From NCBI GenBank assembly GCA_041389005.1, contig JAWKSR010000002.1, forward strand, positions 1,482 to 65,481: 64,000 bases of DNA, written 5' to 3'. The notes below the pieces were generated by a model that searched no databases, was not told the origin of the DNA, and was given only the letters and a program-made list of their open reading frames with translations. Position numbers and translations under genes: made by a program. Numbering within the stretch: the first letter of the stretch is position 1; the number at the start of each line of letters is the position of its first letter. The stretch comes from Minisyncoccota bacterium (GTDB lineage Bacteria > Patescibacteriota > Minisyncoccia > Phycocordibacterales > UBA918). This document shows, one piece after another, positions 10,893 through 58,788 of this stretch.

Positions 10893-12306
10893 ACGATTAC
10901 ATAATTCGCACGCCGGATACCTTGTGGTACTTCTCATGATTTTTGGAGCCGTCTTCTTTTTGATCTTTACTGCTTTCATGGGTTTTGTGATCAATCAGAA
11001 GCAAGTGCAAGATATCAAACGTAATGAAGAACAGGCGCTCTCGATTGCCGAAGCGGGGCTCAACTACTACAAATGGTATTTGGCACATAATCCCAATGAC
11101 GTTACCAACGGCACCACGACGCCTGGTCCGTATGTAATCCCGTACGCTGACCCAGAAAGTGATGACATCGGAGAGTTTTCACTAGCCATTAGTAGTTCGA
11201 CTGCCTGTGGCGATATTATTGCGATTGATATTGAATCAACCGGTTCTACCTATGAAGACCCCGACCGCGATCGTACGATTTACGCCCGGTATGCTAAACC
11301 AACAGTGGCAGAATATTCATACGTGATCAATTCCAACGTGTGGGCGGGTGACGATCGTACGATCATTGGTCCGTATCACTCAAACGGGATAGTGCGCATG
11401 GATGGCACCAATAACTCAACCGTCTCAAGTGGACAAGAAGACTGGGTCTGCGATGACTCAATTCCCTGTGATCCGTATAGCGCCGGGACTACCCTTGATG
11501 GAGTGTATGGAGATGGACCAAATTATGACTTATGGGAAACAGGTGTAGCACCGGTCAGTTTTGCCGGTATTACTGTGGACCTAGCCAATATGAAAACCAA
11601 AGCGCAGGCAGATGGACGGCACTTTGATGATTCCGGTGACTACGGATACTTGATTGATTTTAATAGCAATGACACATTTAACATTTATCGGGTTACGGGC
11701 ACGCAAAGTTATCAGGGATATACAACAGAAGACGGCTGGGAATATGAACGTCACGTGATTACCAATACTTCAGAAGTGGCCGGTAGTCCGTTCTCTATTC
11801 CGTCTGAGTGCTCTCTGATTTTTGTCGAAGATAAAGTGTGGCTTCGTGGAGAAGTGAGTACTAAAGTGACGTTAGCGGCAGCCGATGTTGATACTATCGG
11901 GGTTGATCCACAGATCATTATTGACGGTAACATCACCTATACTGGCGCCAATGCAGGATTATTAGCTATCGCAGAAGAAGACGTGCTCGTAGGTGTTGAT
12001 GTACCAAATGATATGGAAATAAATGGTATTTTCATTGCCCAGAATGGTCGGTTTGGACGTAATCATTATGATTTGAGCCTACCAGCCTCTCTGGACGCCT
12101 ATCGCTACCGTAACTCCCTTACCATCAACGGTACAATTGTCTCTAATGGTCGGGTTGGTACCAAGTGGACTTCGGGTGGTTCTTGGAGTTCTGGTTTTAA
12201 TACCCGATACAACTCATACGACCGTGATATGGTTACCGACCCGCCACCATTAACGCCAGAGGTGTCCGACACCTACCAATTCATCGAGTGGCGTGAAGAA
12301 GACTAG
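10882..12306 (+). CDS. membrane-anchored pilus-associated protein (PilX-N-like anchor, no Glu+5)
   Basis: The ATG at 10882 overlaps the upstream stop (ATGACATCTAA). N-terminal helix YLVVLLMIFGAVFFLIFTAFMGFV, then a ~440-aa extracellular region. Position downstream of the pseudopilins. Confidence 0.55.
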   Translation: MTSKRLHNSHAGYLVVLLMIFGAVFFLIFTAFMGFVINQKQVQDIKRNEEQALSIAEAGLNYYKWYLAHNPNDVTNGTTTPGPYVIPYADPESDDIGEFSLAISSSTACGDIIAIDIESTGSTYEDPDRDRTIYARYAKPTVAEYSYVINSNVWAGDDRTIIGPYHSNGIVRMDGTNNSTVSSGQEDWVCDDSIPCDPYSAGTTLDGVYGDGPNYDLWETGVAPVSFAGITVDLANMKTKAQADGRHFDDSGDYGYLIDFNSNDTFNIYRVTGTQSYQGYTTEDGWEYERHVITNTSEVAGSPFSIPSECSLIFVEDKVWLRGEVSTKVTLAAADVDTIGVDPQIIIDGNITYTGANAGLLAIAEEDVLVGVDVPNDMEINGIFIAQNGRFGRNHYDLSLPASLDAYRYRNSLTINGTIVSNGRVGTKWTSGGSWSSGFNTRYNSYDRDMVTDPPPLTPEVSDTYQFIEWREED

Positions 12307-14526: not shown

Positions 14527-14997
14527 ATGGAATACACTCACTCCCTTGTATATTTAAGAAAAGATAAACAGATGTGTTTAGCGCAGAAAAAACGAGGCTT
14601 TGGTGCTGGGTACTGGAACGGATACGGGGGAAAAATTGAAATGGACGAGACACCTAAACAGTCAGCTGTACGAGAGGTGCGAGAAGAAAGTAGTGTCACT
14701 GTAAACAAACAAAATCTTTCGCACGTTGCCAACCTAAAATTTTATTTTGTTGATGGCGCAGAAGTAAACGTAGCAGCGTATATAGCCACAAAGTGGGAAG
14801 GAGAACCATGGGAAACTGAAGAAATGACGCCAAGATGGTTTTCTATTTCAGACCTTCCCTACGAAGCCATGTGGGAATCAGACTGTGAATGGTTGCCAAA
14901 AATCTTGTCCGGCAAAAAGGTGGTAGGGGAGGTATATTTTGAGGCAGATGACACGACCGTAGCGTCTTGTGACGTGAAAGTTGTTGAGACGCTTTAA
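14527..14997 (+). CDS. Nudix hydrolase (MutT/8-oxo-dGTPase-like)
   Basis: Nudix box GGKIEMDETPKQSAVREVREESSV (GX5EX7REUXEEXGU). Confidence 0.85.
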   Translation: MEYTHSLVYLRKDKQMCLAQKKRGFGAGYWNGYGGKIEMDETPKQSAVREVREESSVTVNKQNLSHVANLKFYFVDGAEVNVAAYIATKWEGEPWETEEMTPRWFSISDLPYEAMWESDCEWLPKILSGKKVVGEVYFEADDTTVASCDVKVVETL

Positions 14998-18131: not shown

Positions 18132-19678
18132 ATGGGAGATCCCCGTACCGGTGTTTCTGTATTTTATAGTTTAGCTAGTAGTTTTGCGTTCGGTATATTT
18201 CTGCGTTCGTTTTTCTCACTCGGATTAGTGGAAGTGGTGTGGCTTATGCTACTAGCGGTGGCTATTGCTTTGCTCTGGCGCCAGGCAGATGTATCTGATC
18301 TGCGTATCTGGCTCCTCTACGGAGCGGTAATTTTTGTGGGATCAGCAGCTGGCATACTCCGACTAGAAATTGCTAGTTGGTCTGAAGTACTACCACAGTA
18401 TGAAACTCGCTTGGGTGAGGCATTTGCAGTGACGGGTACGATTGTACGTGAACCAGATGAGCGGGAGCAACTGACACATTTGTATGTAAAAGTCGAGGAC
18501 GAATTACTTCTGGTCACCACTGACCGCTTTCAGCAATTCTCCTATGGTGATGTAGTTACGGTGAGTGGCACACTTGAGAAACCGGAAGCGTTTATGACAG
18601 ACCTTGGGCGTACGTTTAACTACCCCGGGTACTTACGGGCGCGTGGTGTGAACTACGTATTGCCTTTTAGTGATGTGGAGGTGATAGAACAAGGCGCTGG
18701 CAATATTATCCTGACCAAACTGTTTGCTTTCAAACGCACCTTCATGGACGCGCTTGAACAGGTGGTTGAAGAGCCGATGGTAGGTCTGGGTGAAGGGTTA
18801 CTACTTGGCGTGAAGCGAGCTTTGGGCTCAGAGCTTGAGACGGTATTCCGACAAACTGGCATCATTCACATTGTCGTCCTCTCAGGCTATAACGTCATGC
18901 TGGTCGTGGCGTTTGTCATGTATCTCCTCGGTTCGCTCCTGCCACGCCGTTGGCAAGTTGGGTTTGGTATTGTCGCTATCACGCTCTTCGCTCTTTTAGT
19001 GGGACTGGGTGCTACCGTGGTGCGTGCTAGTTTGATGGCGGGCATTCTCCTGGTACTCAGTCTCACTGGACGCACCTACTTTGTCATTCGAGCCCTCGTA
19101 TTGGCGGGAGTCATTATGCTCATCGTGAACCCTTATTTACTTGCCTTTGATGTGGGATTTCAGTTGTCATTTATGGCGACACTGGGACTCATCCTCCTAG
19201 CGCCAGCTATTATCGCGCGGATCACCTGGCTGCCGGATTGGTTTGGTGCTCGTGAGTTTCTCGCTGCTACCGTTGCAACGCAAATCTTCGTAGCGCCAAT
19301 TCTTCTCTATCAAATTGGTGAGTTTTCTCTTATTGCGGTGATTGTTAATGTCCTGGTGCTCCGATGGTGCCGGTAGCGATGTTGCTCACGTTTATCACCG
19401 GTCTTATTGGCATGTTAGCTCCAGCGATGGCGATGTATGTTGGTGTGCTAGCAGACCTTTCTTTGCGGTACATCATTGTTGTGGCTACGCAGTTTGCGAC
19501 AGTCCCGTATGCTTCAGTGGCGGTGCCGCCATTGCCATTTTTCACCGTACCGTTGGCGTATGGACTGGGCTTTGCCTACTGGTGGTATCGCAGTAGTCGG
19601 AGCATAGAGAGTGACGATGTCCTCGCTGGTTGGACGATTGTCAGTGAGTCAGATATAAAAACAGCGGGACGCTCTTAA
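18132..19678 (+). CDS. comEC: ComEC/Rec2 DNA-uptake channel (DUF4131 + competence TM domain, no MBL domain); frame break at 19359-19363
   Basis: Polytopic: GLLLGVKRALGSELETVFRQTGIIHIVVLSGYNV. ORFs 17934..19376 and 19364..19678 join after a 1-nt change at ctCCgatg. The start is uncertain (ATG 18132 chosen; the ORF opens at 17934). Confidence 0.8.
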
Positions 19679-19697
19679 GAGCGTCCCGCTGTTTTTC
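19657..19697. terminator. bidirectional rho-independent terminator (comEC / sod)
   Basis: aaaaACAGCGGGACGCTCttaaGAGCGTCCCGCTGTtttt. A 14-bp perfect stem, with the comEC stop in the loop. Confidence 0.85.
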
Positions 19698-38109: not shown

Positions 38110-41100
38110 GTGTATCCTATGTTCACCACCCATTCTTTTTGGTCACGTTTTATTGTATTGATACTGGTAATACAGTTGGCACTTCCCCTTCCTGTAGTGG
38201 CGGGCATTAGTGGGTCAAATGATAATGCGGGGGCTGGTCCTGGCGAATCAGATAAATCTGCTGAAGGTGGTGTTGGACAAGGTAGTGGCGGTGGGTCCTC
38301 TTCTGGTTCGGGTAACAATGGTGGTGGCTCTTCCTCTGGCGGTGATCCTGCAGCCGGTGGCGATCCCAGTGCTGGCGGTGATCCTGCAGCCGGTGGCGAT
38401 CCCGCTGGTACCAACACCGGTGGCTTTGACCAAAGTGGTAATATCAGCGCCGGTGGTGGCTTTAATGCCGACGGTAGCATTAGTGACCCCGCTACTGGAG
38501 AAGAAGCAGTGTCTGCCGCTGAAGTAGCTCAAGCCAGTGGTTTAGGTATTGGTATTGACCCGGCCGCTACTGTGGAGGGAATCAATAACGGTACTTTGGG
38601 TAATGGACAAGTGGTTGATAAACAAGGACAAACCCGTGATATTGCAAAAGAACAGGCAATCAGCGACCGGGTTGGCAACGCCTTTGGTGAAGCAAATGAT
38701 CCAGATGTTGAGGCACAGTCCCGAGCTGGTGGATTGGCTGCGAGTGATATCTCAAAGGCTCTTGGCTCCCGTTCACAAGTTTCTGTTACCGGGAGTATGC
38801 TTGATCCAACCCCAGTTGCTAGACAAGGTTTCACGCATACTGGCTTTGTGTCCAACATAACGGATACTTACGATGGCATAACTAACACAAACACCTTATC
38901 TACCTCTCTTAACCCCACGCCAATTTCCGAACAGAAACAATCATCACTTTCACACACTGGTTTTGCTGCGAGTCTTGGTCCGGCCGCACGCTCAGTGAGT
39001 ACTGACACAGTTTCACCGACTAGTCCAAGCTTAGGTATTGGAGCTTTTTCGTTGGAGCCTAACGTGGCTTTAGGCTACGATCGAAACTTCGGTACTTTTT
39101 CCGGAGTAACACGTACTGCTAACGAGTTTGGTCTTGATACAGTTTCGCGCTCAACCCCGGCGGAAATTGCACGAGCTAATCCGACAGCTGCTCTTGCGAA
39201 CGAAAATTTTGCGAATCGTACTACAGAAATTGAGCAAGAGATCGAAGGTTTAAAGGCAAGTATTGCTGCACAGCAGCAAGGTATGATTGACGCTTTGTCA
39301 GTGGATGAAACAGCTACAATTTCCCAGGTAGACACCATTTCCTTACAGGCTGATGAAATGACTCTAGAAGCGCTCGAAGCTGAGTTGGCTGCTCGGCAGA
39401 GTCTTGATCCAACCGCCATGACTGAGGCGACGGCACTAGGTGCGATAGCGGCAAGCGGTCAAACTACAGCAGCAAATGCTCGTGCTCGGGATCAGAGTGT
39501 GCCTGGCGCAGCGCGTGAAGCAGCGCTTGACGCTGCAGATATGGAGGCTTTAGGTCAGCAAATGGAGGCAATAAAAGCGGATGCTGATCTGGCACAGGAA
39601 ATTGCAACGCTCTCAAGAGAGATGGCTCAGAATAATACAGCAAACACAGTAGCTATTGGTTTTGACTACGGTTCAATACGTGGACTGGACCCAACTCCAG
39701 TAGCTGAGATGTCTTTTGATCCAGTCAATAATCCGGGTCTTGGTATTAGTACCCAGGCTGCATTCGGGTATCCAGACACACCTGCCTCCCAGACTGCCAA
39801 CCCTGGTTCCATTTCACGCAACAATCCAACTGTCGATGCACCGACTCCATCAGCACGAGCGTATGCAGAGACTGTGAATACCCTTGAAGGACTTGGTCTT
39901 TCAACGCCAACCGCGCAATCTGTTGCCACCGGTCTTGGCATTGCTGCCCGTTCTGTGCCTGGAGTTGACACACTTTCAAATGCACTTGATGCGGTTGAAT
40001 TGGCTGACAGAGCGCGCCAAGCACGCGAGGCAGCTGCCGCCGCCACCGATCCAACAGTGGCACAGAACAACACTGTTGCTGCTGACGTCTACGGAGCGAT
40101 GGCAACTCAAGCAACCAAAAATGCAGTTGTGAGCGGCGTTATCGACTTAGGTATAACTGTCGCCGCCCCGGCACTGTCACCAAATAATTTTGCACCATCA
40201 GTACGTACTGGTCGGTCGATTAGCGCGCCTGCCAACAACAATTTCGCTTCTGGGGCAGTGGCTACGGATATTGGCAGAACTGCTCAACAGTCAGTCAGTG
40301 ACACTGTGGCAACCGCCAATCGAACTAATTCACCGAACACTAGTGCTACTCCCTCTGGAGTGCGGGCAGCCAATGATAATGTAAGTCCGACCGGGTCTCG
40401 ATCGGTTACTGCAGACGATACGGTAAGTGTTAACGTAAGCCGTGATCCGGTTACGGGCAGTGTCACTGGAGTTTCTGTCGGTATTTCTCGAGGAACAGTT
40501 TCAAGTGCGGCTGCACGTTCGACTGATAATATAGCAGGAACAGTTGGTCGTAGTGCCGATGACGCTCTGGGAGCTGCAGGAACGGCTGCACGTTCAGCAG
40601 ATGACGCAGCTGGCACAGTCGGTCGTAGTGCTGACGATGCGGCAGGTACCGGTGGACGAGTTGGCGAAGACACATCGGGAACAGTCGGGCGTACGGCTGA
40701 TGATACTAGCACCAATGTTGCTCGAGCTAATCAGCAACCGGCTGACCCTGGAGTGAATTTAGGCAATAGTTCCGCTAACGTCCGTGGCGCTACACCCGCT
40801 TCTACGGTGACAAACCAACAAGCACGTGGTGTTGTCGCTGCTTTAAATAGTCGTAATCCTGTCTCAAATCCTACTACTGCGCGCGCCAAGACAGTAGCTG
40901 CTTTAGCAGTAGCAATTAATTTGGCACAAGTAGCTATCCCGTCAGTAGTGCCAACCGCTAGCAAAATAGCCGGAGGAATTACTGAAGTCGCAGTTCGCAC
41001 GGCTGATGATATTTCAGTGTCGTCAGTTCGAGTTGGTGACTTGAGCACAAACATCTCGCGTAATACTGCTAATACAGGAGTAACTGCTAGTCAGGTTTCA

Positions 41101-44097
41101 AGAATTGGTGTTAGTTCGGTTGATGAGACCGCCACTGCAGTAGCGCTCGGCGCCATCGGCACGGTTAATGTTTCAAATCAAATTTCAGTTGCCAATCCAA
41201 ACACCGCTGTCAACAGCCCGTCTGCTTCCGCTTTAGGTGATTTTGATTCTGTAAATCCAACCGGATCGGCAGGAACGCCTGATCGAGCTGTTGGGAGCAC
41301 AGATACTCCAGCTGCTGGTGGGGATGTAAATACAACAGCGAATCCGACTTCACAAAACCCAGGCACTAATCTTGGACGTACCATCGGTTCGACTGTCGGT
41401 GGTTTTGTCAGTGATGCTAGTACGGTAGCGTTACAAACACTCGGTGAGTTTTTTGGAGTACGACCAGCACAGTCTGGTATTAGAGTTGATGGTCAAGTTC
41501 TCACCAACGCTCAGTACGTAGGACTGGGGTACGCTCGTATCGGTACCGAAGATGTAAAAAGTACAGCCCGCACCCTGGCTGGAGAATTGCAAGCGTCAAT
41601 CAGAAACACCTTTGTCAGTAATTATAACCGTGGTGGTTTGCAGGCAGGCTTAGATAGTCTTTCAGTCCGTGATAAGCAAGCAGTAGGAGGAATTATCAAT
41701 ACTGCTGCTAATCGTATTAATCCTGGACGAACTGACTACGATTCTTTCAAAGAAGTATATGAAGCAACGAGTCAATATAGTACGTACAATCCTGGTGAGA
41801 CAGGACCAGGCACCGCTGCGTACCGACAAAATACTGCAGCGCTTGATGCTCTTGCGGAAGCGTTCTTGGATGGAACAGTTGCCCGAATGTATGGCGTCAA
41901 CGTGGCAGTACCATTCCCAACTGCCACTCACTATCACGCTAGTTATGTAAGTCCTGGCTGGAAAAATGATCTCAATCAAGTTTCCCCGGGTTCTTATGGA
42001 CTTCACTTCTTTTATACCACGGTAGGTACGCCACACGGCATTCCGTATAGTCGAGTTGCTTCTCGAGATATAACTGGACCAGTTGCAGTACCGACTACTG
42101 GTAGTCTAATCGCCGCAACTGACGCAGCGCAACACACGAATCCGACACCGCAGCAACAAAATGTGATCCAAAAAGTAAATATTGTACAGCGTCCTTCCTT
42201 GCAGCAATTAGGAAACCCGGATGACGCTCGACCACAGGGAAGCCGAGTGGTTCAACGGGGTCAGACTACGCCAGTAGCACCAAATGATATAACCGCTCTT
42301 AAGGAACGAGCAAGCCAATTACAAGATAGGGTAAATTCTTTAAGAGACACTACGCCACAACAACGTGTGTCTACTCCAGCACAAACCACCTCAGCGCCAA
42401 CACAGACCAATGTCCAAACAACTCCAGGTGTAACGACTCAGGCACCACGGCAGGTAGTGAATGTCTTTATCTCCGGTCTGTTAGGTGATGGAGTTATGCG
42501 TGGAGTGATTTCTTTGGTAAAACAACGTGGATTGGATAATATTGTTCATATTAAAGACAGTAACGTCTCTCAGCGAACAGTGACCGAACAGCTTAAAGCG
42601 CTAGGACCGGACACCGTGGTCAATATCTTTGGTCATTCCCGTGGAGTGTTCCGTGGTATAGAGGTGGCACGGGAATTACAGGCAGCGGGGATGACGGTAG
42701 AAAACTTCTTTGCTTTCGATGGGCATTGGACTGGACTATCAGCTTCCAAAGTGTCACCAAATGTTGCAAATTTTGTTGATTTCCGTCCGGCAGTGGGTTC
42801 GTGGGCAGATCGGTATGGAGCGGACGCCTTTATTGATAAGTCTGCCAACACTGCCACCAACTACCAATCAGTTCGGGTTGGTGGGTTATTGGGAGCAGCT
42901 GGTCAAATCGGCGTAATAGAGGGGTTACTAGGGCCTGTTAGTATTCCCCTCAAGGTTGCAGGTAGTCACGTGGCGGGTGTGTTTAACCCGAGTCTACTAG
43001 ATAGAACAGCAAATACATTTAACCAAGCGCCTTCTCCACAAGTAGTGGAAACAACTCGTCCAGGTGTCACGCAAGAAGCTCCAGCTACCTCACAAACTAA
43101 TAGTCTGTATGATCAGTTACAGCGTGGTATTCAAAACGGCTCACTCACTCTGACAACTACCGGAGCAGACGTAACGGTTGCGACCAAGCCTGGTCAAACA
43201 ACCAATCTTAGTATCCAGGCACCAAATGGTACTCGTTCGGTATTATCTGGTAGTCTTGCTATTACGGTAAATGAAGCTGGTAGCATCAGTATCAAAGGGA
43301 CAACAGGGGACACTAATCTTTCACTCCAAGTCAAAGACCGTGTTATTAGTGGCAAACTCAACATCTCGGTTCAACCTGACGGTAGTGCCGTGGTTGGTAC
43401 ACTAGATAATCAACTAAATGTTGATGGACGCAGTGCCAATGTTAGTGTAAACATTTCAGCATCGGGCGTCTTAGAAGCAATTGGAAATGGTTTTGTTGGT
43501 CAGACCGTCGCTGCTCTTGTGAATGGATTGGTCGGGGGCGCTGGCACCACTGCTCAACAAATCAGCGATATTTTGGGCGAAGTGAGTAAAACAGGTCAAG
43601 GTATTTACTCTGATGCAGTTAGTGGTCAACTATCTGAGACTGCTCCAGCTACTACTGCATCACTTCCAGAACTGACAGATCGTGCTGGTGTAGAGACGCA
43701 AAACGTCAATCCAAGTAATCAAACAACTGGATTTAATCCAACTCCAAGCGATTACTATGCTGGAGCTATTCCTGGCTTGCCTGAGTTAGGGGCGGTACCT
43801 GGGTATGCCCCAGGCACCACCTATGGTGTTACGGCCACTAAAAATGCTCAGCCAGTACAAGGAATTATCACCCACCATGCTTTGGGCACTGCTGAAAGCG
43901 TTGCGGCTTATGGGCAAAAACGTGATGCTAAGCGTGGAGGAGTGTTTGGGTACCATGTTGTGATTGGTGCAAAAAAGATGGGAGTGTCAGCATTGTACAG
44001 GCAGCTCCTCTCGATCAACGTACTAACCATTACTCCAACAAAAGTGCTGCCAGAAATAAAGATGGTGTTCTTGGTCCGCTTAATAGCGTGGGAGTAA
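38110..44097 (+). CDS. giant envelope protein, part 1 of 3 (1,995 aa): N-terminal anchor, Gly-rich PAAG repeats, long Ala/Thr/Ser-rich region, SleB/CwlJ-like cell-wall hydrolase, GxSxG alpha/beta-hydrolase, start of Amidase_2
   Basis: Anchor FWSRFIVLILVIQLALPLPVVAG. SleB-like (about 41680-42020): GGIINTAANRIN...ATHYHASYVSPGW...GLHFFY. GHSRG at 42631-42645. Amidase_2 begins at 43861 (GIITHHALGT...GYHVVIG). Confidence 0.8.
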   Translation: MYPMFTTHSFWSRFIVLILVIQLALPLPVVAGISGSNDNAGAGPGESDKSAEGGVGQGSGGGSSSGSGNNGGGSSSGGDPAAGGDPSAGGDPAAGGDPAGTNTGGFDQSGNISAGGGFNADGSISDPATGEEAVSAAEVAQASGLGIGIDPAATVEGINNGTLGNGQVVDKQGQTRDIAKEQAISDRVGNAFGEANDPDVEAQSRAGGLAASDISKALGSRSQVSVTGSMLDPTPVARQGFTHTGFVSNITDTYDGITNTNTLSTSLNPTPISEQKQSSLSHTGFAASLGPAARSVSTDTVSPTSPSLGIGAFSLEPNVALGYDRNFGTFSGVTRTANEFGLDTVSRSTPAEIARANPTAALANENFANRTTEIEQEIEGLKASIAAQQQGMIDALSVDETATISQVDTISLQADEMTLEALEAELAARQSLDPTAMTEATALGAIAASGQTTAANARARDQSVPGAAREAALDAADMEALGQQMEAIKADADLAQEIATLSREMAQNNTANTVAIGFDYGSIRGLDPTPVAEMSFDPVNNPGLGISTQAAFGYPDTPASQTANPGSISRNNPTVDAPTPSARAYAETVNTLEGLGLSTPTAQSVATGLGIAARSVPGVDTLSNALDAVELADRARQAREAAAAATDPTVAQNNTVAADVYGAMATQATKNAVVSGVIDLGITVAAPALSPNNFAPSVRTGRSISAPANNNFASGAVATDIGRTAQQSVSDTVATANRTNSPNTSATPSGVRAANDNVSPTGSRSVTADDTVSVNVSRDPVTGSVTGVSVGISRGTVSSAAARSTDNIAGTVGRSADDALGAAGTAARSADDAAGTVGRSADDAAGTGGRVGEDTSGTVGRTADDTSTNVARANQQPADPGVNLGNSSANVRGATPASTVTNQQARGVVAALNSRNPVSNPTTARAKTVAALAVAINLAQVAIPSVVPTASKIAGGITEVAVRTADDISVSSVRVGDLSTNISRNTANTGVTASQVSRIGVSSVDETATAVALGAIGTVNVSNQISVANPNTAVNSPSASALGDFDSVNPTGSAGTPDRAVGSTDTPAAGGDVNTTANPTSQNPGTNLGRTIGSTVGGFVSDASTVALQTLGEFFGVRPAQSGIRVDGQVLTNAQYVGLGYARIGTEDVKSTARTLAGELQASIRNTFVSNYNRGGLQAGLDSLSVRDKQAVGGIINTAANRINPGRTDYDSFKEVYEATSQYSTYNPGETGPGTAAYRQNTAALDALAEAFLDGTVARMYGVNVAVPFPTATHYHASYVSPGWKNDLNQVSPGSYGLHFFYTTVGTPHGIPYSRVASRDITGPVAVPTTGSLIAATDAAQHTNPTPQQQNVIQKVNIVQRPSLQQLGNPDDARPQGSRVVQRGQTTPVAPNDITALKERASQLQDRVNSLRDTTPQQRVSTPAQTTSAPTQTNVQTTPGVTTQAPRQVVNVFISGLLGDGVMRGVISLVKQRGLDNIVHIKDSNVSQRTVTEQLKALGPDTVVNIFGHSRGVFRGIEVARELQAAGMTVENFFAFDGHWTGLSASKVSPNVANFVDFRPAVGSWADRYGADAFIDKSANTATNYQSVRVGGLLGAAGQIGVIEGLLGPVSIPLKVAGSHVAGVFNPSLLDRTANTFNQAPSPQVVETTRPGVTQEAPATSQTNSLYDQLQRGIQNGSLTLTTTGADVTVATKPGQTTNLSIQAPNGTRSVLSGSLAITVNEAGSISIKGTTGDTNLSLQVKDRVISGKLNISVQPDGSAVVGTLDNQLNVDGRSANVSVNISASGVLEAIGNGFVGQTVAALVNGLVGGAGTTAQQISDILGEVSKTGQGIYSDAVSGQLSETAPATTASLPELTDRAGVETQNVNPSNQTTGFNPTPSDYYAGAIPGLPELGAVPGYAPGTTYGVTATKNAQPVQGIITHHALGTAESVAAYGQKRDAKRGGVFGYHVVIGAKKMGVSALYRQLLSINVLTITPTKVLPEIKMVFLVRLIAWE
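38338..38409 (+). repeat. coding tandem repeat, 4 x 18 nt (GGDP[A/S]AG)
   Basis: ggcggtgatcctgcagccggtggcgatccc occurs twice. Encodes GGDPAAGGDPSAGGDPAAGGDPAG, with PAAG at 38347-38358 and 38383-38394. Confidence 0.9.
40534..40710 (+). repeat. coding tandem repeat, about 5 x 33 nt (AGTVGRSADDA-like)
   Basis: AGTVGRSADDALGAAGTAARSADDAAGTVGRSADDAAGTGGRVGEDTSGTVGRTADDTS. Confidence 0.85.
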
Positions 44098-48246: not shown

Positions 48247-48615
48247 ATGGCAACAACAGAAAAAAAGACAGCGAAAAAGGCTTCTAAAAAAGATGCGCCA
48301 GCTGGAGAAATCCAGAAACTCCGCATCCGTGTTCGTGCTTACGAACACAAGATTCTTGATACTTCTACCAAACAGATTATGGACACTGCTCAGCGTTTTG
48401 ACGCTAAAGTAGTTGGTCCAATTCCGTTACCGACTGAGATCAAGAAGTACACAGTAAACCGTTCAACGTTCGTCCACAAAGACGCGCGAGAACAATTTGA
48501 GATGCGCATGCACAAGCGTGTGATCGACATCCTAAACCCGAGCGGTAAGGTGATCGAAGCTCTCACCAATCTTTCGTTGCCATCAGGCGTCAACATTGAC
48601 GTCAAGATGATGTAA
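48247..48615 (+). CDS. rpsJ: 30S ribosomal protein S10 (about 20-aa Lys-rich N-terminal extension)
   Basis: KLRIRVRAYEHKILD....I......F.AKVVGPIPLPT....YTVNRS.FVHKDAREQFEMR.HKR.IDI. Confidence 0.95.
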   Translation: MATTEKKTAKKASKKDAPAGEIQKLRIRVRAYEHKILDTSTKQIMDTAQRFDAKVVGPIPLPTEIKKYTVNRSTFVHKDAREQFEMRMHKRVIDILNPSGKVIEALTNLSLPSGVNIDVKMM

Positions 48616-48628
48616 CTAAGTTGCCAAC

Positions 48629-48659
48629 AAAAAAATCACTGCAATGCAGTGATTTTTTT
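48629..48659 (+). terminator. rho-independent terminator after rpsJ
   Basis: aaaaaaaTCACTGCaaTGCAGTGAttttttt. Confidence 0.85.
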
Positions 48660-48677
48660 GTTGTGTGCAATTTAGTT

Positions 48678-48753
48678 ACCCAGCCTCATTTTGGGCGAAG
48701 CGCGTGCTGAATAAGGTAATAGCGAGAGCCCGTAACAAAAAATGGGGCTGGGT
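48678..48753 (+). repeat. structured ~76-nt element, copy A (nested three-stem hairpin)
   Basis: aCCCAGCCTCATTTTgGGCgaagcgcgtgctgaataaggtaatagcgagaGCCcgtaacAAAAATGGGGCTGGGt. About 70% identical to 58344-58421, with compensatory changes in the outer stem. Confidence 0.7.
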
Positions 48754-48830
48754 GATTTATAAGAGATGTGCTGCCAACAAAAAGCCCGTAGCTACGCTGC
48801 GGTATTTTTGTATCCAGTACTCACCAAAAG

Positions 48831-48860
48831 AAACGCCAGGCATCAAAGCCTGGCGTTTCT
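48831..48860 (+). terminator. rho-independent terminator about 80 nt downstream of element copy A
   Basis: aaaCGCCAGGCatcaaaGCCTGGCGtttctc. Confidence 0.7.
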
Positions 48861-48957
48861 CTAAAATACTATGGGTGGTATTTCGGTTTCTCAAGTGAAA
48901 TGTGGACGTCATGCCACACTCACTATATATGACGATTGAAAACCACTTTTCTTTCAA

Positions 48958-49004
48958 AGAAAAAAGCCTGGCGACGGGAAACGTTGGAGTTCACGTCGTC
49001 AGGC
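48958..49004 (-). terminator. rho-independent terminator (minus strand)
   Basis: Minus strand: GCCTGACGACGtgaactccaacgtttcCCGTCGCCAGGCtttttt. Confidence 0.7.
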
Positions 49005-49266
49005 TTCCAAAATTCCACAGATGTCTTTTTCAGACCGAGAAGCGTTGAGCTTCTCTTATAATCCTACTCAGACCCATCTGGACTTGGTTTGGTCGCTCGT
49101 CTCGTAGCCTAGCGTACCTTGGTGTCGGGAAAAAGGTGAAACTCGAAGGCGCTTCTCACACCTCCATTATCGACAGTGACCAAACGAGTGATCATTCGTA
49201 TCTCCATTTCCCGAGCTGAAGCTGTACAATACAGAGAAACGCGCTCGTTCCGTTTCCCCTATATGC

Positions 49267-49296
49267 ACCATACACCCAACACCACCTTTTTTGCAA
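49267..49296 (-). promoter_or_regulatory. candidate minus-strand promoter (TTGCAA-18-TATGGT) of an orphan ~300-nt unit
   Basis: -35 at 49296-49291, -10 at 49272-49267. Divergent from the rplC promoter. No ORF of 60 aa or more between it and the terminator at 48958-49004. Confidence 0.35.
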
Positions 49297-49316
49297 GCAT
49301 GTTCCTGGTACTAACC

Positions 49317-49515
49317 TTGCAAAACGTGGATAAATCCGTATACTAACGCCAGTTTTCTAAGACCTACGTTCGGTGATATCTGGCTTGCCAGATTGAGAAC
49401 CAATGGGCACAAAACCGCGATTTTTGATTGCGAGCTTGTGCTCGCGACCGAAAAGCGCGGTTTTGCATTTTCGGGTCTAATAGAAAACAGATTATTAGAC
49501 TAGTTCAGAAAATAA
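49317..49515 (+). promoter_or_regulatory. rplC promoter (TTGCAA-16-TATACT) plus 171-nt structured leader
   Basis: -35 at 49317-49322, -10 at 49339-49344. Leader stems: gttttctaagacc/gggtctaatagaaaac, atctggcttgccagat, caaaaccgcg/cgcggttttg (perfect 10 bp), gcgagcttgtgctcgc. Confidence 0.6.
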
Positions 49516-50145
49516 ATGAAGTTTATTTTAGGAACCAAAGATGGCATGACTCAAGTCTTCGATGCCGAAGGCGTGTGTCACCCAGCGACTGTACTTAAAG
49601 TCGATCCAATGACTATCACTGCCCTCAAGGGTAGCGAAAAGGACGGCTATGATGCGGTACAGGTTGCCGCCGGTGAGCAGAAAGAACACCGACTCGGCAA
49701 GGCAGAGCTTGGTCACCAGGGTGGTGCGAAGAAACTGGTAAAAGAGTTTCGGGTTCGTCAAAACCATGGCGAGTCCCTCGAGGGATTTGAAGTGGGACAA
49801 ACCATAGACGCAGGCACCTTTGAGCCAGGGGACACCGTTATCGTGAGCGCTACCTCTAAGGGTAAGGGCTTCCAAGGTGTTGTTAAGCGCCACGGTTTTG
49901 CTGGTGGTCGTGCTTCACACGGTCAGAAGCATTCACATCGTGAACCAGGTTCAATCGGTTCAACCGGATTTGGGCGTGTTATCAAAGGATTGCGCATGGC
50001 AGGACGTATGGGAGGTGATCGGATTACGGTCAAAAATCTCACCGTTCTCCAGGTGAACAAAGATGAAAATGTATTGCTTATCAAGGGAGCTATCCCCGGT
50101 CGGCGCGGTACAGTAGTAGAAGTAAGAGGCGTAGAAGCGAAATAG
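49516..50145 (+). CDS. rplC: 50S ribosomal protein L3
   Basis: ILGTKDGMTQVFD..G....ATVLKV; GKGFQGVVKRHGF.GG.ASHG....HR.PGSIG. Confidence 0.96.
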   Translation: MKFILGTKDGMTQVFDAEGVCHPATVLKVDPMTITALKGSEKDGYDAVQVAAGEQKEHRLGKAELGHQGGAKKLVKEFRVRQNHGESLEGFEVGQTIDAGTFEPGDTVIVSATSKGKGFQGVVKRHGFAGGRASHGQKHSHREPGSIGSTGFGRVIKGLRMAGRMGGDRITVKNLTVLQVNKDENVLLIKGAIPGRRGTVVEVRGVEAK

Positions 50146-52301: not shown

Positions 52302-52333
52302 GAAAAAACCATCCTGACAGGCGGTCAGGATGG
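52302..52333 (-). terminator. rho-independent terminator (minus strand) for the antisense small gene
   Basis: Minus strand: CCATCCTGACCgcctGTCAGGATGGtttttt. Confidence 0.75.
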
Positions 52334-52371
52334 AGTCATTATGTTTGCTGCTGCATTTGTTAACCTTGAGG

Positions 52372-52557
52372 CTATTTCTCTGCAATGCCTCGACTGACCA
52401 GCATCTTCCGTGTTTCAAGCGCCCGCTGCGCGTTCGCGTCACCGTTTTTTGCTCGTTTTTTTACTTCCTCAATGGGGTGATGCGATGTTTTTGGATCCGG
52501 ATACGAGATGTGTCCACGCCACATCTCTTCCGGTTCCGGTGTGTACATGCCTGCCAT
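52372..52557 (-). CDS. small hypothetical protein (61 aa) encoded antisense between rplB and rpsS
   Basis: ggaaGGAGGttcatATG (5-nt spacing). MAGMYTPEPEEMWRGHISYPDPKTSHHPIEEVKKRAKNGDANAQRALETRKMLVSRGIAEK. Own terminator. Candidate extended -10 (tgGTATAAG) upstream. Confidence 0.5.
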   Translation of the reverse strand: MAGMYTPEPEEMWRGHISYPDPKTSHHPIEEVKKRAKNGDANAQRALETRKMLVSRGIAEK

Positions 52558-52623
52558 ATGAACCTCCTTCCGGCTAATGGTCACCAGTGTTTCTTATACC
52601 ACGCGAGTGATACTTCTGTCTCG

Positions 52624-52803
52624 TTGACATTTCACACTGTTTCCCGTACTATAGCGCCGTTCTAACCTCGTTACCACATACCCCTGGCAGGGTGTTTGGC
52701 AACAACAGGAAGTAGCTAAGAAAACCGTTATTTTCTTGGCATCCATATTTCCTTTCATACCGTAGCAGCTAGCGCTGCCGGTTTTATTCGTTATTGAGTC
52801 AAA
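52624..52803 (+). promoter_or_regulatory. rpsS promoter (TTGACA-17-TACTAT) plus 151-nt leader
   Basis: -35 at 52624-52629, -10 at 52647-52652. The leader starts aGCGCC..., with hairpins cccctggcagggtg and gcagctagcgctgc followed by cggtttta. Confidence 0.65.
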
Positions 52804-56498: not shown

Positions 56499-56978
56499 AT
56501 GTTTGTGCTTAAAGGCAAGAATACCTATTCAGAAGAAATTTTAAATCCTGTTTTATTTTATGGAGGAGAGCTTGGTTATTGTTTTTCAAATTTTTCAGCC
56601 TTCAATGTTGTGTGGAAAAATCGCACATGGCAGACTTCAGAGCACGCTTTTCAAGCGGCTGGCTTTGACGACGTAAGCATTGTTGAAGAAATTGCTAATG
56701 CTAACTCAGCACATGACGCTCTTAAACTAGCAATAAAATATAGTGATAGACTCCGTCCAACTTGGGAGAATGAAAAGAGATCAATTATGAAAGACATTTG
56801 TAGGAAGAAATTACATCAACATGAATATATAAAGAAAACATTACTCCAGACCAAGAATCACCGGTTGGTAGAAGATTCACCAAAGGATGGTTACTGGGGA
56901 TGTGGAGCCAATGGGCTGGGTAAAAATTGGCTTGGCAAAATCTGGATGGAATTAAGATCAGAATTAACTGAAGAGTAG
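56499..56978 (+). CDS. NADAR (YbiA/DUF1768) domain protein
   Basis: FYGGELGYCFSNFSAFNVVWKNRTWQTSEHAFQAAGF....; EDSP.D.YWG.G..G.G.N.LG..LM..R. Confidence 0.8.
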   Translation: MFVLKGKNTYSEEILNPVLFYGGELGYCFSNFSAFNVVWKNRTWQTSEHAFQAAGFDDVSIVEEIANANSAHDALKLAIKYSDRLRPTWENEKRSIMKDICRKKLHQHEYIKKTLLQTKNHRLVEDSPKDGYWGCGANGLGKNWLGKIWMELRSELTEE

Positions 56979-57774: not shown

Positions 57775-58308
57775 ATGAGTCGACTCGGAAAACAACCAAT
57801 CAGCATCCCTAGTGGAGTTGAGGTTACATACACAGATGGTTCTTTGACCGTTAAGGGACCAAAAGGAACGCTTGTGCGAGACATGAAAGCTGATGTTACG
57901 GTAACCGTAGCAGACGGCGCCATCACGCTCGTACCAGCGAAGGAAACAAAAGAAGCCCAGGCACTCTGGGGTACGTATGCATCCCACGTTACAAACATGA
58001 TTCATGGTGTAACTGAAGGCTACGAAAAAATCCTCGAAATCGAGGGGGTAGGATACCGGGCTGAGATCAAAGGCACGAGCATTGTGCTCAATGTCGGATT
58101 CTCACACCCTGTAGAACTACCGTTCCCAGAAGGAATCACCGCAGAGGTCGAAAAAAACGTCATCAAAATCAATGGTATCGATAAAGAAGCGGTTGGTCAG
58201 TACGCTGCCAACGTTCGCAAAGTGAAGAAACCAGAGCCATACAAGGGCAAAGGTATTCGGTATCAGGGCGAGTATATTATTCGTAAGCAAGGCAAGAAAG
58301 CCGTTTAA
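57775..58308 (+). CDS. rplF: 50S ribosomal protein L6
   Basis: MSRLGKQPI.IP.GV.V......LTVKGPKGTL; GVGYRAE; PEPYKGKGIRY.GE. Confidence 0.95.
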   Translation: MSRLGKQPISIPSGVEVTYTDGSLTVKGPKGTLVRDMKADVTVTVADGAITLVPAKETKEAQALWGTYASHVTNMIHGVTEGYEKILEIEGVGYRAEIKGTSIVLNVGFSHPVELPFPEGITAEVEKNVIKINGIDKEAVGQYAANVRKVKKPEPYKGKGIRYQGEYIIRKQGKKAV

Positions 58309-58343
58309 AGTAAGGAGCGGTAACGCGACTATATTTTAAACGG

Positions 58344-58421
58344 TCCAGCTCCCATTTCGGGCGAAGCGCGCCGCCGAATAGGCAATCATAGCGCAAGCCT
58401 GTAACAAGAAATGGGGCTGGG
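58344..58421 (+). repeat. structured ~78-nt element, copy B, inserted in the rplF-rplR spacer
   Basis: tCCAGCTCCCATTTcGGGCgaagcgcgccgccgaataggcaatcatagcgcaaGCCTgtaacaagAAATGGGGCTGGg. Same architecture as 48678-48753. Ends 16 nt before the rplR ATG. Confidence 0.7.
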
Positions 58422-58437
58422 CGGGAAAATATCTAAC

Positions 58438-58788
58438 ATGAACAAAACACAAGCAAAAACACAAAAGCGTGTCAGTCGCCATAAGCGCATTCGCGCCAAG
58501 GCAATTGGTACCGCCGTTAAGCCTCGCTTGGCAGTCTTCAAAAGCAATACTGCCGTATATGCTCAGCTTATTGATGACAGTACGCACACAACACTAGCAG
58601 CCGCTGATACCCGCAAACTAAAGGGTGACAGCCTCACCGCACGCGCGAGTGAGCTTGGCAGTGTTATTGCTAAAAAAGCTAAGGACGCTGGTATCGAAGC
58701 AGTGGTCTTTGACCGCGGTGGATTCAAGTACCAAGGTTCTATCGCTGCTTTAGCTGATAGTGCTCGATCTGGAGGACTTACATTCTAG
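58438..58788 (+). CDS. rplR: 50S ribosomal protein L18
   Basis: R.RRH.RIRAK..GT...PRLAVFKSN...YAQLIDD....TLAAA; AVVFDRGGFKY.G...ALAD.AR..GL.F. Confidence 0.94.
   Translation: MNKTQAKTQKRVSRHKRIRAKAIGTAVKPRLAVFKSNTAVYAQLIDDSTHTTLAAADTRKLKGDSLTARASELGSVIAKKAKDAGIEAVVFDRGGFKYQGSIAALADSARSGGLTF

Follow-up and report, generated by a model that had tools for sequence, protein, structure and literature searches.

Introduction

Hardly anything is known of how the Patescibacteria (CPR) control gene expression at the RNA level. The locus described here, a spacer downstream of rpsJ, raises the question of whether a small hairpin that occurs twice among the ribosomal-protein genes of one such bacterium is (i) an RNA that acts within the transcripts that carry it; (ii) a mobile DNA element; or (iii) both. 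A covariation-supported motif tied to ribosomal-protein transcripts would offer a handle on how minimal cells process and balance their most abundant mRNAs. If the element were instead a mobile hairpin, it would be an unusual one: low-copy, strand-specific and targeted to ribosomal-protein operons. In any case, its significance is limited by its rarity, as each core-pattern scan, one of 185,579 species genomes and the other of 241 million metagenome records, yielded a single extra copy. Throughout the text, "the window" refers to the whole stretch of DNA that was analysed (64,000 nucleotides).

Two copies of one hairpin in the window

The two copies reported in the initial annotation are both present, on the + strand, and their predicted parts are as follows (P1 to P4 are the helices, from the foot of the hairpin to its tip):

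48678-48753, + strand: copy A (sequence; fold -36.6 kcal/mol, z -5.0; 82 bits with covariance model R1)
48678-48692 / 48739-48753: copy A, P1
48693-48696 / 48728-48731: copy A, P2 (GGGC/GCCC)
48697-48699 / 48726-48727: copy A, loop between P2 and P3 (GAA/GA)
48700-48703 / 48722-48725: copy A, P3
48706-48717: copy A, P4 with apical loop
48732-48738: copy A, bulge GUAACAA
58344-58421, + strand: copy B (sequence; fold -36.7 kcal/mol, z -4.4; 85 bits with covariance model R1)
58345-58358 / 58408-58420: copy B, P1, with one bulged U
58359-58362 / 58397-58400: copy B, P2 (GGGC/GCCU), followed by the P2-P3 loop (GAA/AA)
58366-58369 / 58391-58394: copy B, P3
58373-58383: copy B, P4 (GCC-GAAUA-GGC)
58401-58407: copy B, bulge GUAACAA

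The similarity of the two copies, originally put at about 70% identity, is real and in fact higher: global alignment gives 77.5% identity and a score of 39, against -12.8 +/- 4.6 for 1000 shuffles, which places it 11 SD over the shuffle mean. The blocks GGGCGAAGCGCG and AATGGGGCTGGG, which had been described as common to both copies, each occur without mismatch at exactly two sites in the whole window. One and the same nested hairpin is predicted for A and B, as first proposed; none of 200 shuffles reaches their fold energy, and their reverse complements fold more poorly than the + strands. When the whole window was scanned with the covariance model, filters off, A and B were the sole matches, with no copy in the ~50 kb that lie beyond the ribosomal-protein cluster. 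According to self-BLAST, the hairpin element is the window's only interspersed repeat family, besides two palindromes (48625-48663 and 19657-19696) of 39-40 nt that are perfect or near-perfect.

The compensatory changes first claimed between A and B come down to one truly compensatory pair, innermost in P1, where U-A is exchanged for C-G. In the outer stem, A and B have the same 3' strand, and their 5' strands are set apart by C/U transitions and an additional base; the remaining stem differences, including that of P2 (GCCC versus GCCT), are one-sided G-C/G-U changes.

Surroundings of the two copies

The features that flank the two copies are the following:

48247-48615, + strand: rpsJ, encoding S10 (Pfam PF00338, 114 bits); stop codon 63 nt 5' of copy A
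48625-48663, no strand assigned: near-perfect palindrome of 39 nt that carries A and U tracts and separates rpsJ from copy A (self-BLAST 97%; sequence)
48786-48812, + strand: terminator-like hairpin CCGUAGC-UAC-GCUGCGG, followed by UAUUUUUG (consensus scan)
48831-48860, no strand assigned: second hairpin, ACGCCAGGC...GCCUGGCGU, with A and U runs on both sides (sequence)
57775-58308, + strand: rplF, encoding L6; stop codon 36 nt 5' of copy B
58438-58788, + strand: rplR, encoding L18 (Pfam PF00861, 127 bits)

The palindrome at 48625-48663 has the features of a bidirectional terminator-like hairpin. Together with the hairpin at 48831-48860, which gives a weak match to the terminator part of Thr_leader on the minus strand (Rfam, E <= 10), it had been taken to bound a mini-unit of about 180 nt. 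Both flanking hairpins exist, but the proposed unit does not stand, because a closer terminator-like hairpin at 48786-48812 (stem 48786-48802, then a U tract) begins 32 nt 3' of copy A. Nor does the idea of an independent RNA of about 180 nt hold: the consensus scan found no promoter-like site between the rpsJ hairpin and copy A, copy B lies 16 nt before rplR, and four of the six copies now known (see below) are placed past a stop codon, at the end of a transcription unit.

The next ribosomal-protein gene, rplC (encoding L3; PF00297), lies 760 nt downstream of copy A and is preceded by a promoter-like site (TTGCAA-16-TATACT, 49317-49344), after which comes a leader 83% identical to that of a relative. 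Since rplC thus has its own promoter-like site and a conserved leader, rpsJ would be the last gene of the upstream unit and copy A is assigned to the 3' end of a transcription unit. Given the strong terminator-like palindrome on its 5' side, copy A would then be transcribed by read-through only.

Copy B sits inside a polycistronic spacer. The L6 protein encoded upstream of it is 100% identical to the annotated 50S ribosomal protein L6 of a Candidatus Paceibacterota MAG. The ATG of rplR follows 16 nt downstream, with no obvious Shine-Dalgarno sequence, and copy B shows neither a terminator nor a sequestered Shine-Dalgarno sequence.

Other features of the rpsJ-rplC spacer deserve a mention in their own right. 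The noncoding stretch just 5' of rplC (49315-49475) aligns over 160 nt, at 83% identity, with positions 56-214 of locus L010, which belongs to a relative with 76% L6 identity. Two hairpins also lie in this stretch, a small one that shows compensatory changes and a long one with UUGCAUUUU next to it on the 3' side; the stretch has no Rfam match and is a candidate attenuator-type leader of the L3-L4 operon. The ~450 nt from the hairpins after copy A to the rplC promoter (48860-49315) contain no ORF with a Pfam match. They do contain a further hairpin, GCCUGGCGACG...CGUCGUCAGGC, at about 48967-49006, and the word GCCUGGCG recurs there from the 48831-48860 hairpin.

Members of the family in other genomes

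Further members exist in other genomes. Four more copies were obtained as follows: (i) an exact-core pattern scan of the species genomes returned eight matches, of which one was real, located 10 nt past the rplL stop codon of another Paceibacterota MAG (L006); (ii) of 37 matches to a relaxed pattern in the JGI metagenomes, again one was real, located between rplJ and rplL, 12 nt past the rplJ stop codon (L029); (iii) covariance model R1, built from A, B, L006 and L029, detected a divergent second copy in L006 (L006#2, 26.7 bits), which follows a non-ribosomal gene encoding a DUF1360 membrane protein; and (iv) the same model detected a copy 25 nt past rplL (63.7 bits) in L056, a relative of L029 fetched via its L10 protein. 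The family therefore has six members: A, B and four from other Paceibacterota assemblies (at least three assemblies).

A second model, built from all six members, found no further copy in ~190 kb of Paceibacterota sequence. Two IMG/VR pattern scans and blastn gave no match in the phage, plasmid and IMG/VR collections. The rplL 3'UTR of locus L062, which has the 3' flank GGUGGAAAAG in common with L006, was not counted as a member (z -1.2, no covariance-model match).

A scaffold gap (100 N) begins 20 nt 3' of the L006 element. On the same contig (L063, 6811-13546), the start of a 23S rRNA gene lies 2.5 kb 3' of the element; an ORF encoding a LAGLIDADG endonuclease (10945-11526) lies within its span and, hence, the gene is probably interrupted by an intron.

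Conserved architecture and covariation

The whole element is predicted to form one long irregular helix of ~28-30 stacked pairs, non-canonical ones included, that is, a single unbranched hairpin in which no pseudoknot was found. From foot to tip, the following parts can be distinguished: (i) P1, of 13-15 bp (at least 10-15 bp across the six members), whose middle is free in sequence and whose foot is usually CC(C)NGC/GCN(N)GGG; (ii) P2 (GGGC/GCCY), stacked directly on P1, with the 7-nt GUAACAA bulge on the 3' strand of their junction; (iii) an internal loop, GA(A)/GA, that provides a tandem sheared G.A context; (iv) P3 (GCGC/GCGN); (v) a purine-rich asymmetric loop with a G on the 5' side and 3-8 nt, usually ending in AUA, on the 3' side; and (vi) P4 (GCC/GGC), capped by a GAAUA pentaloop.

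Across the six members the stems covary. In alignment A5, which holds these n=6 sequences and was fitted to the model, canonical pairs make up 96.7% of the pair cells; sliding the 3' partners by 1-3 columns lowers this share to 31-49%. Double-sided changes affect 14 of the 21 pairs, against 2-5 after sliding. Not one of 500 shuffles attained the paired fraction, the double-change counts or the covariation score of the real alignment. P2 illustrates these changes well, being GGGC/GCCC in most members, AGGU/ACCU in L056 and GGUU/AACC in L006#2; P3 likewise passes from GCGC/GCGC to GUAC/GUGC in L056. For the most divergent member, energy minimisation alone recovers P1, P2, the GA/GA loop and P3.

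The unpaired core is near-invariant, although the L10 proteins of L006 and of the L029 clade are only ~51% identical; departures from it include the bulge, which is GUAUCAA in L056 and is also altered in L006#2. Six G.U cells would become A.C on the opposite strand. These observations establish that the helices and specific unpaired nucleotides are under selection, at the level of either RNA or single-stranded DNA.

Genomic context and sporadic distribution

All six copies are in the sense orientation relative to the upstream gene. The four copies that were found without any context bias (A, B, L006 and L029) all abut ribosomal-protein genes (rpsJ, rplF/rplR, rplL and rplJ/rplL, respectively) and, with the L056 copy after rplL, five of the six do so. 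As the window is rich in ribosomal-protein genes, the context of A and B weighs little; L006 and L029, in turn, come from genome-wide and metagenome-wide scans, and both lie at rplJ/rplL. Two positions recur: the 3' end of a transcription unit, past a stop codon (A, L006, L056 and L006#2), and the spacer between two cistrons (B and L029). The 3' flanks of P1 are UGAUUUAUAAG in A, GCGGGAAAAU in B, CAGCUAAAAC in L029, GUGGCGACAA in L056 and the above-mentioned GGUGGAAAAG in L006. No U tract follows the element in any copy and, in consequence, the elements are not terminators themselves. A long hairpin stands ~45 nt downstream of the L056 copy.

The distribution of the element among close relatives is sporadic. 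Thirteen related loci were fetched via L6 and L10 homologues for a check of the orthologous spacers, and a copy was present in L056 only; the same spacers are devoid of it in L009-L012, L052-L054, L057-L062, L065 and L066. The element is thus not essential. Between the L6 and L18 genes, the closest relatives fetched (76-84% L6 identity) have ~15 nt or unrelated hairpins. Within the L029/L056 clade, L057-L062 have no copy, and the site itself shifts, from after rplJ in L029 to after rplL in L056, between genomes whose L10 proteins are 74% identical. A relative 66% identical to L006 has neither of the two L006 copies. As regards the sequences, copy A is closer to L029 (84% identity) than to copy B (77%), and copy B has states in common with L006. 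Sporadic presence, shifting sites and the closeness of A to L029 rather than to B indicate that the element has moved or been exchanged among operons and lineages while retaining its core.

Comparison with known RNA and DNA families

A search of the whole window against Rfam 15 at gathering thresholds gave 0 matches, and none of the classical ribosomal-protein leaders of Rfam was detected in the window. With the threshold relaxed to E <= 10 over 48600-49520 and 58300-58450, the element stayed uncovered and only noise on the neighbouring terminators appeared; 11 related loci, searched at gathering thresholds, matched LSU rRNA only. The element is absent from the catalogued RNA families: it is new as a family, albeit of a familiar kind, namely a structured extragenic hairpin module.

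The REP, BIME and REPIN sequences of proteobacteria, which come with RAYT transposases, are in several respects similar to it. Like them, the element is an imperfect palindromic hairpin that occupies transcribed spacers outside genes, past stop codons or between two cistrons, and is multi-copy and patchy among relatives; REPs, moreover, can stabilise the upstream mRNA. Unlike REPs, it is approximately twice as long, has conserved internal loops and a 7-nt bulge, occurs at very low copy number and in a single orientation, lies beside ribosomal-protein genes in five of six cases, and keeps its core across ~50% L10 identity. REP/REPIN sequences are imperfect palindromes of 20-40 nt with a 5' GTAG foot, or inverted doublets of these, that occur in many copies in both orientations and flank a cognate RAYT gene; here the P1 foot has no GTAG (the sole GUA is in the internal bulge), the two halves are unequal by a 7-nt insertion, and there are two copies per 64 kb on one strand. 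A MITE would have conserved terminal inverted repeats, whereas here conservation is internal and the middle of P1 is free to vary; besides, the flanks of A, B, L029 and L056 show no target-site duplication or direct repeat. Integron attC sites were discarded by eye, as the R'/R'' core sites (GTTRRRY/RYYYAAC) are absent from the foot of the stem. A tblastn search found no Y1 transposase in the window. In L056, the palindromes that flank a RAYT-like gene (TTACCAAGGCG/CGCCTTGGTAA) differ from the element, with no covariance-model match adjacent to that gene.

The RNA classes that were considered can be dealt with as follows: (i) for an intrinsic terminator, the U tract after P1 is lacking and the terminator scan passes over the element; (ii) for an autoregulatory ribosomal-protein leader, four of six copies stand at the 3' ends of transcription units; (iii) for a riboswitch, the element lies mostly in 3'UTRs and has no alternative pairing with the terminator downstream of copy A; and (iv) for hammerhead, twister, pistol, hatchet and hairpin ribozymes, neither inspection by eye nor Rfam shows the respective core.

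Mimicry of rRNA at the sequence level was rejected as well. Local alignments with the E. coli rrn operon and with the L006 genome's own 23S stay within the shuffle range. The sole shared word, CGUAACAAG (16S h44, 1496-1504), is replaced by GUAUCAA in L056. The comparison also took in 5S helix II/III, the 23S word CCGAAUAGG and the L10/L11 region.

The P2-P3 loop resembles a kink-turn (Kt-7, GGC-GAA-GA / GGA-GCC) in that the canonical copies read GGGC-GAA-G... / ...GA-GCCC, with the same C-stem, GAA and G.A at 1b.1n. However, their 2b is C, not A, and the loop is 3x2, not 5x2, while in L056 and L006#2 the loop is symmetric (2x2, GA/GA) and lacks the bulge. The motif is an ordinary loop of tandem sheared G.A pairs.

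Two further classes offer parallels. In phage T7, RNase III hairpins whose internal loops are conserved recur between cistrons as a family, and the rplL-rpoB spacer of E. coli contains an RNase III site. Like these, the element is a repeated irregular hairpin of ~2.5 turns with conserved internal loops, located between cistrons or in 3'UTRs, where RNase III hairpins leave a protective 3' hairpin. The length of its predicted helix is compatible with the ~20 bp or more of an RNase III site, and two of its copies lie after rplL, as does this classic cellular site. On the other hand, there is no sequence similarity, and the conserved apical pentaloop and bulge are foreign to RNase III substrates. 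The second parallel is with the L10 leader, the spc/S8 site and the S10/L4 leader, which are also structured RNAs with G.A-rich loops in ribosomal-protein operons. In contrast to them, the element matches no Rfam family, shows no rRNA mimicry in its sequence, presents one motif in four operon contexts and is usually downstream rather than in a 5'UTR. For such a downstream position there is a precedent in the L17DE motif of Rfam, a structured element 3' of a ribosomal-protein gene (rplQ).

What the element may be

The proposal of the initial annotation, a functional RNA or a structured mobile mini-element, survives on each of the points it named: homologues exist, the stems covary, no Rfam family matches, and the defining features of REPs and MITEs are lacking. 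The A-B compensation cited for it is weak when taken alone.

Our tentative preference, held with less than even confidence, is that the element acts in cis, as a processing or stability module which a protein recognises in the untranslated spacers of ribosomal-protein mRNAs. The module would be co-transcribed within these mRNAs, just past a stop codon, in the 3'UTR before a terminator or in an intercistronic spacer. Its invariant unpaired nucleotides may be what an RNA-binding protein or a double-strand-specific RNase recognises, and its long helix may serve as a processing site and exonuclease barrier that sets or protects mRNA ends. In this way, the stability or stoichiometry of highly expressed ribosomal-protein cistrons would be tuned by a dispensable module that has been duplicated and relocated between operons and lineages. 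This reading, in which transcription, protein binding and the role in processing or stability are inferred, is favoured by (i) the strand bias, the restriction to ribosomal-protein transcripts and the very low copy number; (ii) a window that has neither another repeat family nor a transposase; and (iii) a form and placement that resemble RNase III processing hairpins and REP-type stabilisers. Several facts sit less well with it. Read-through is needed for copy A, and the module is missing from the same spacers of close relatives. The change of site between L029 and L056 and the likeness of A to L029 suit a mobile element equally well. A generic RNase III site needs neither a conserved apical loop nor a bulge. 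Finally, the family has six members and its covariation was counted on a model-fitted alignment.

A selfish, non-autonomous mobile DNA hairpin of REP, REPIN, MITE or IS200/IS605-derived type is the strongest alternative, although we consider it rather unlikely. A trans-acting enzyme would recognise the conserved core and the bulge on single-stranded DNA. The exposed non-template strand of very highly transcribed, replication-co-oriented operons would be favoured for insertion or retention, which would account for the ribosomal-protein bias and for the sense orientation; any RNA effect would be secondary. Such mobility would explain the sporadic presence and differing positions among close relatives, the two genomes with two copies each, and subtypes that cross genome boundaries (A nearer to L029 than to B; states shared by B and L006). 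It is also in keeping with the RAYT-like Y1 transposase genes and other repeated perfect hairpins of related Paceibacterota, with the pile of hairpins in the inter-operon spacer of copy A, and with the scaffold gap that starts so close to the L006 copy. Against it stand the low copy number (two in 64 kb, none of them in the ~50 kb outside the ribosomal-protein cluster), the single orientation and the flanks, in which no target-site duplication was seen. The window has no Y1 transposase, the palindromes of the L056 RAYT-like gene are unrelated, and phage, plasmid and IMG/VR searches gave no match. Besides, a freely varying P1 middle with conserved internal loops is the reverse of terminal inverted repeats. 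The RNA module and the mobile hairpin are in any case compatible, because REPs are both mobile and stabilising.

An autogenous feedback site, bound by L10(L12)4, S8, L18 or another ribosomal protein or complex, is improbable. From the 3'UTR or spacer, it would act on mRNA stability or on how the following cistron is translated. Ribosomal-protein binding sites typically have tandem G.A and purine-rich asymmetric loops. This reading would account for the five copies by ribosomal-protein genes, three of them at rplJ/rplL and one directly 5' of rplR. It does not account for a single motif in four operon contexts, nor for several copies at operon ends with no downstream cistron to control; rRNA alignment scores fall within the shuffle distribution, CGUAACAAG is lost in L056, and no ribosomal-protein leader of Rfam matches.

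Slightly less credit still is given to a broader proposal, in which the element would represent a new, horizontally mobile class of regulatory RNA specific to CPR ribosomal-protein operons. It could be a new small RNA that cleaves itself or serves in processing, or else a place where an RNA-binding factor peculiar to CPR docks. If true, this class would coordinate ribosomal-protein mRNA levels in organisms devoid of most classical ribosomal-protein leaders.

It is very improbable that the element is a trans-acting sRNA, independently transcribed or 3'UTR-derived, with GUAACAA as its seed. This heptamer is conserved and single-stranded, and a terminator-like hairpin follows copy A at 32 nt and a long one follows the L056 copy at ~45 nt; against this, no promoter-like site was found 5' of copy A, B and L029 are intercistronic with no terminator, the seed is altered in L056 and L006#2, and its complement TTGTTAC is not enriched in the window (8 observed versus 11 expected).

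Least likely of all is a catalytic or ligand-sensing RNA, that is, a new operon-punctuating self-cleaving ribozyme or a riboswitch aptamer, since the compactness of the element, its strongly conserved junction and bulge nucleotides inside covarying helices and its intercistronic placement, in which it resembles many small ribozymes, are set against the lack of any Rfam ribozyme or riboswitch match even at E <= 10, a single unbranched hairpin in which no pseudoknot was found, core nucleotides that differ in L056 and L006#2 and, for a riboswitch, the wrong position in 3'UTRs with no downstream gene or expression platform.

Other repeats and insertions in the ribosomal-protein clusters

Some additional features of the window and of the related loci were recorded. 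A RAYT-like Y1 transposase gene lies in a syntenic position 5' of rplJ in L056 (337-999, minus strand) and in L061 (80-742, minus strand); its score with NF047646 is 52 bits, under the cutoff of 80. Around the L056 gene, the TTACCAAGGCG-N-CGCCTTGGTAA palindrome occurs in three copies (108-130, 276-324 and 1028-1050), and a similar palindrome, CCAAGGCG...CGCCTTGG, lies between rplJ and rplL in L029. In L009, a 66-nt nearly perfect hairpin, AAAATAACCGAGGTCCGACCTT..GAGCGAAGCGAC..AAGGTCGGACCTCGGTTATTTT, has two copies within 3.5 kb (14930-14990 and 18368-18428); its loop has GCGAAGC, a word also found in the canonical element and in the rplL 3'UTR of L062.

Foreign genes were also observed. In the window, a foreign NADAR-domain gene (56499-56978) interrupts the cluster between rplE and rpsH, where L009 has a response regulator and a PAS histidine kinase (7431-9123). 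Between rplB and rpsS, the window has a foreign, unassigned ORF of 111 aa (52330-52665), and DUF2103-like genes are present in L009 and L010 (L010 3050-4443). Finally, the region 5' of tuf-rpsJ in the window contains a single ORF of 1995 aa (38110-44097), followed by overlapping ORFs of 508 aa and 372 aa.
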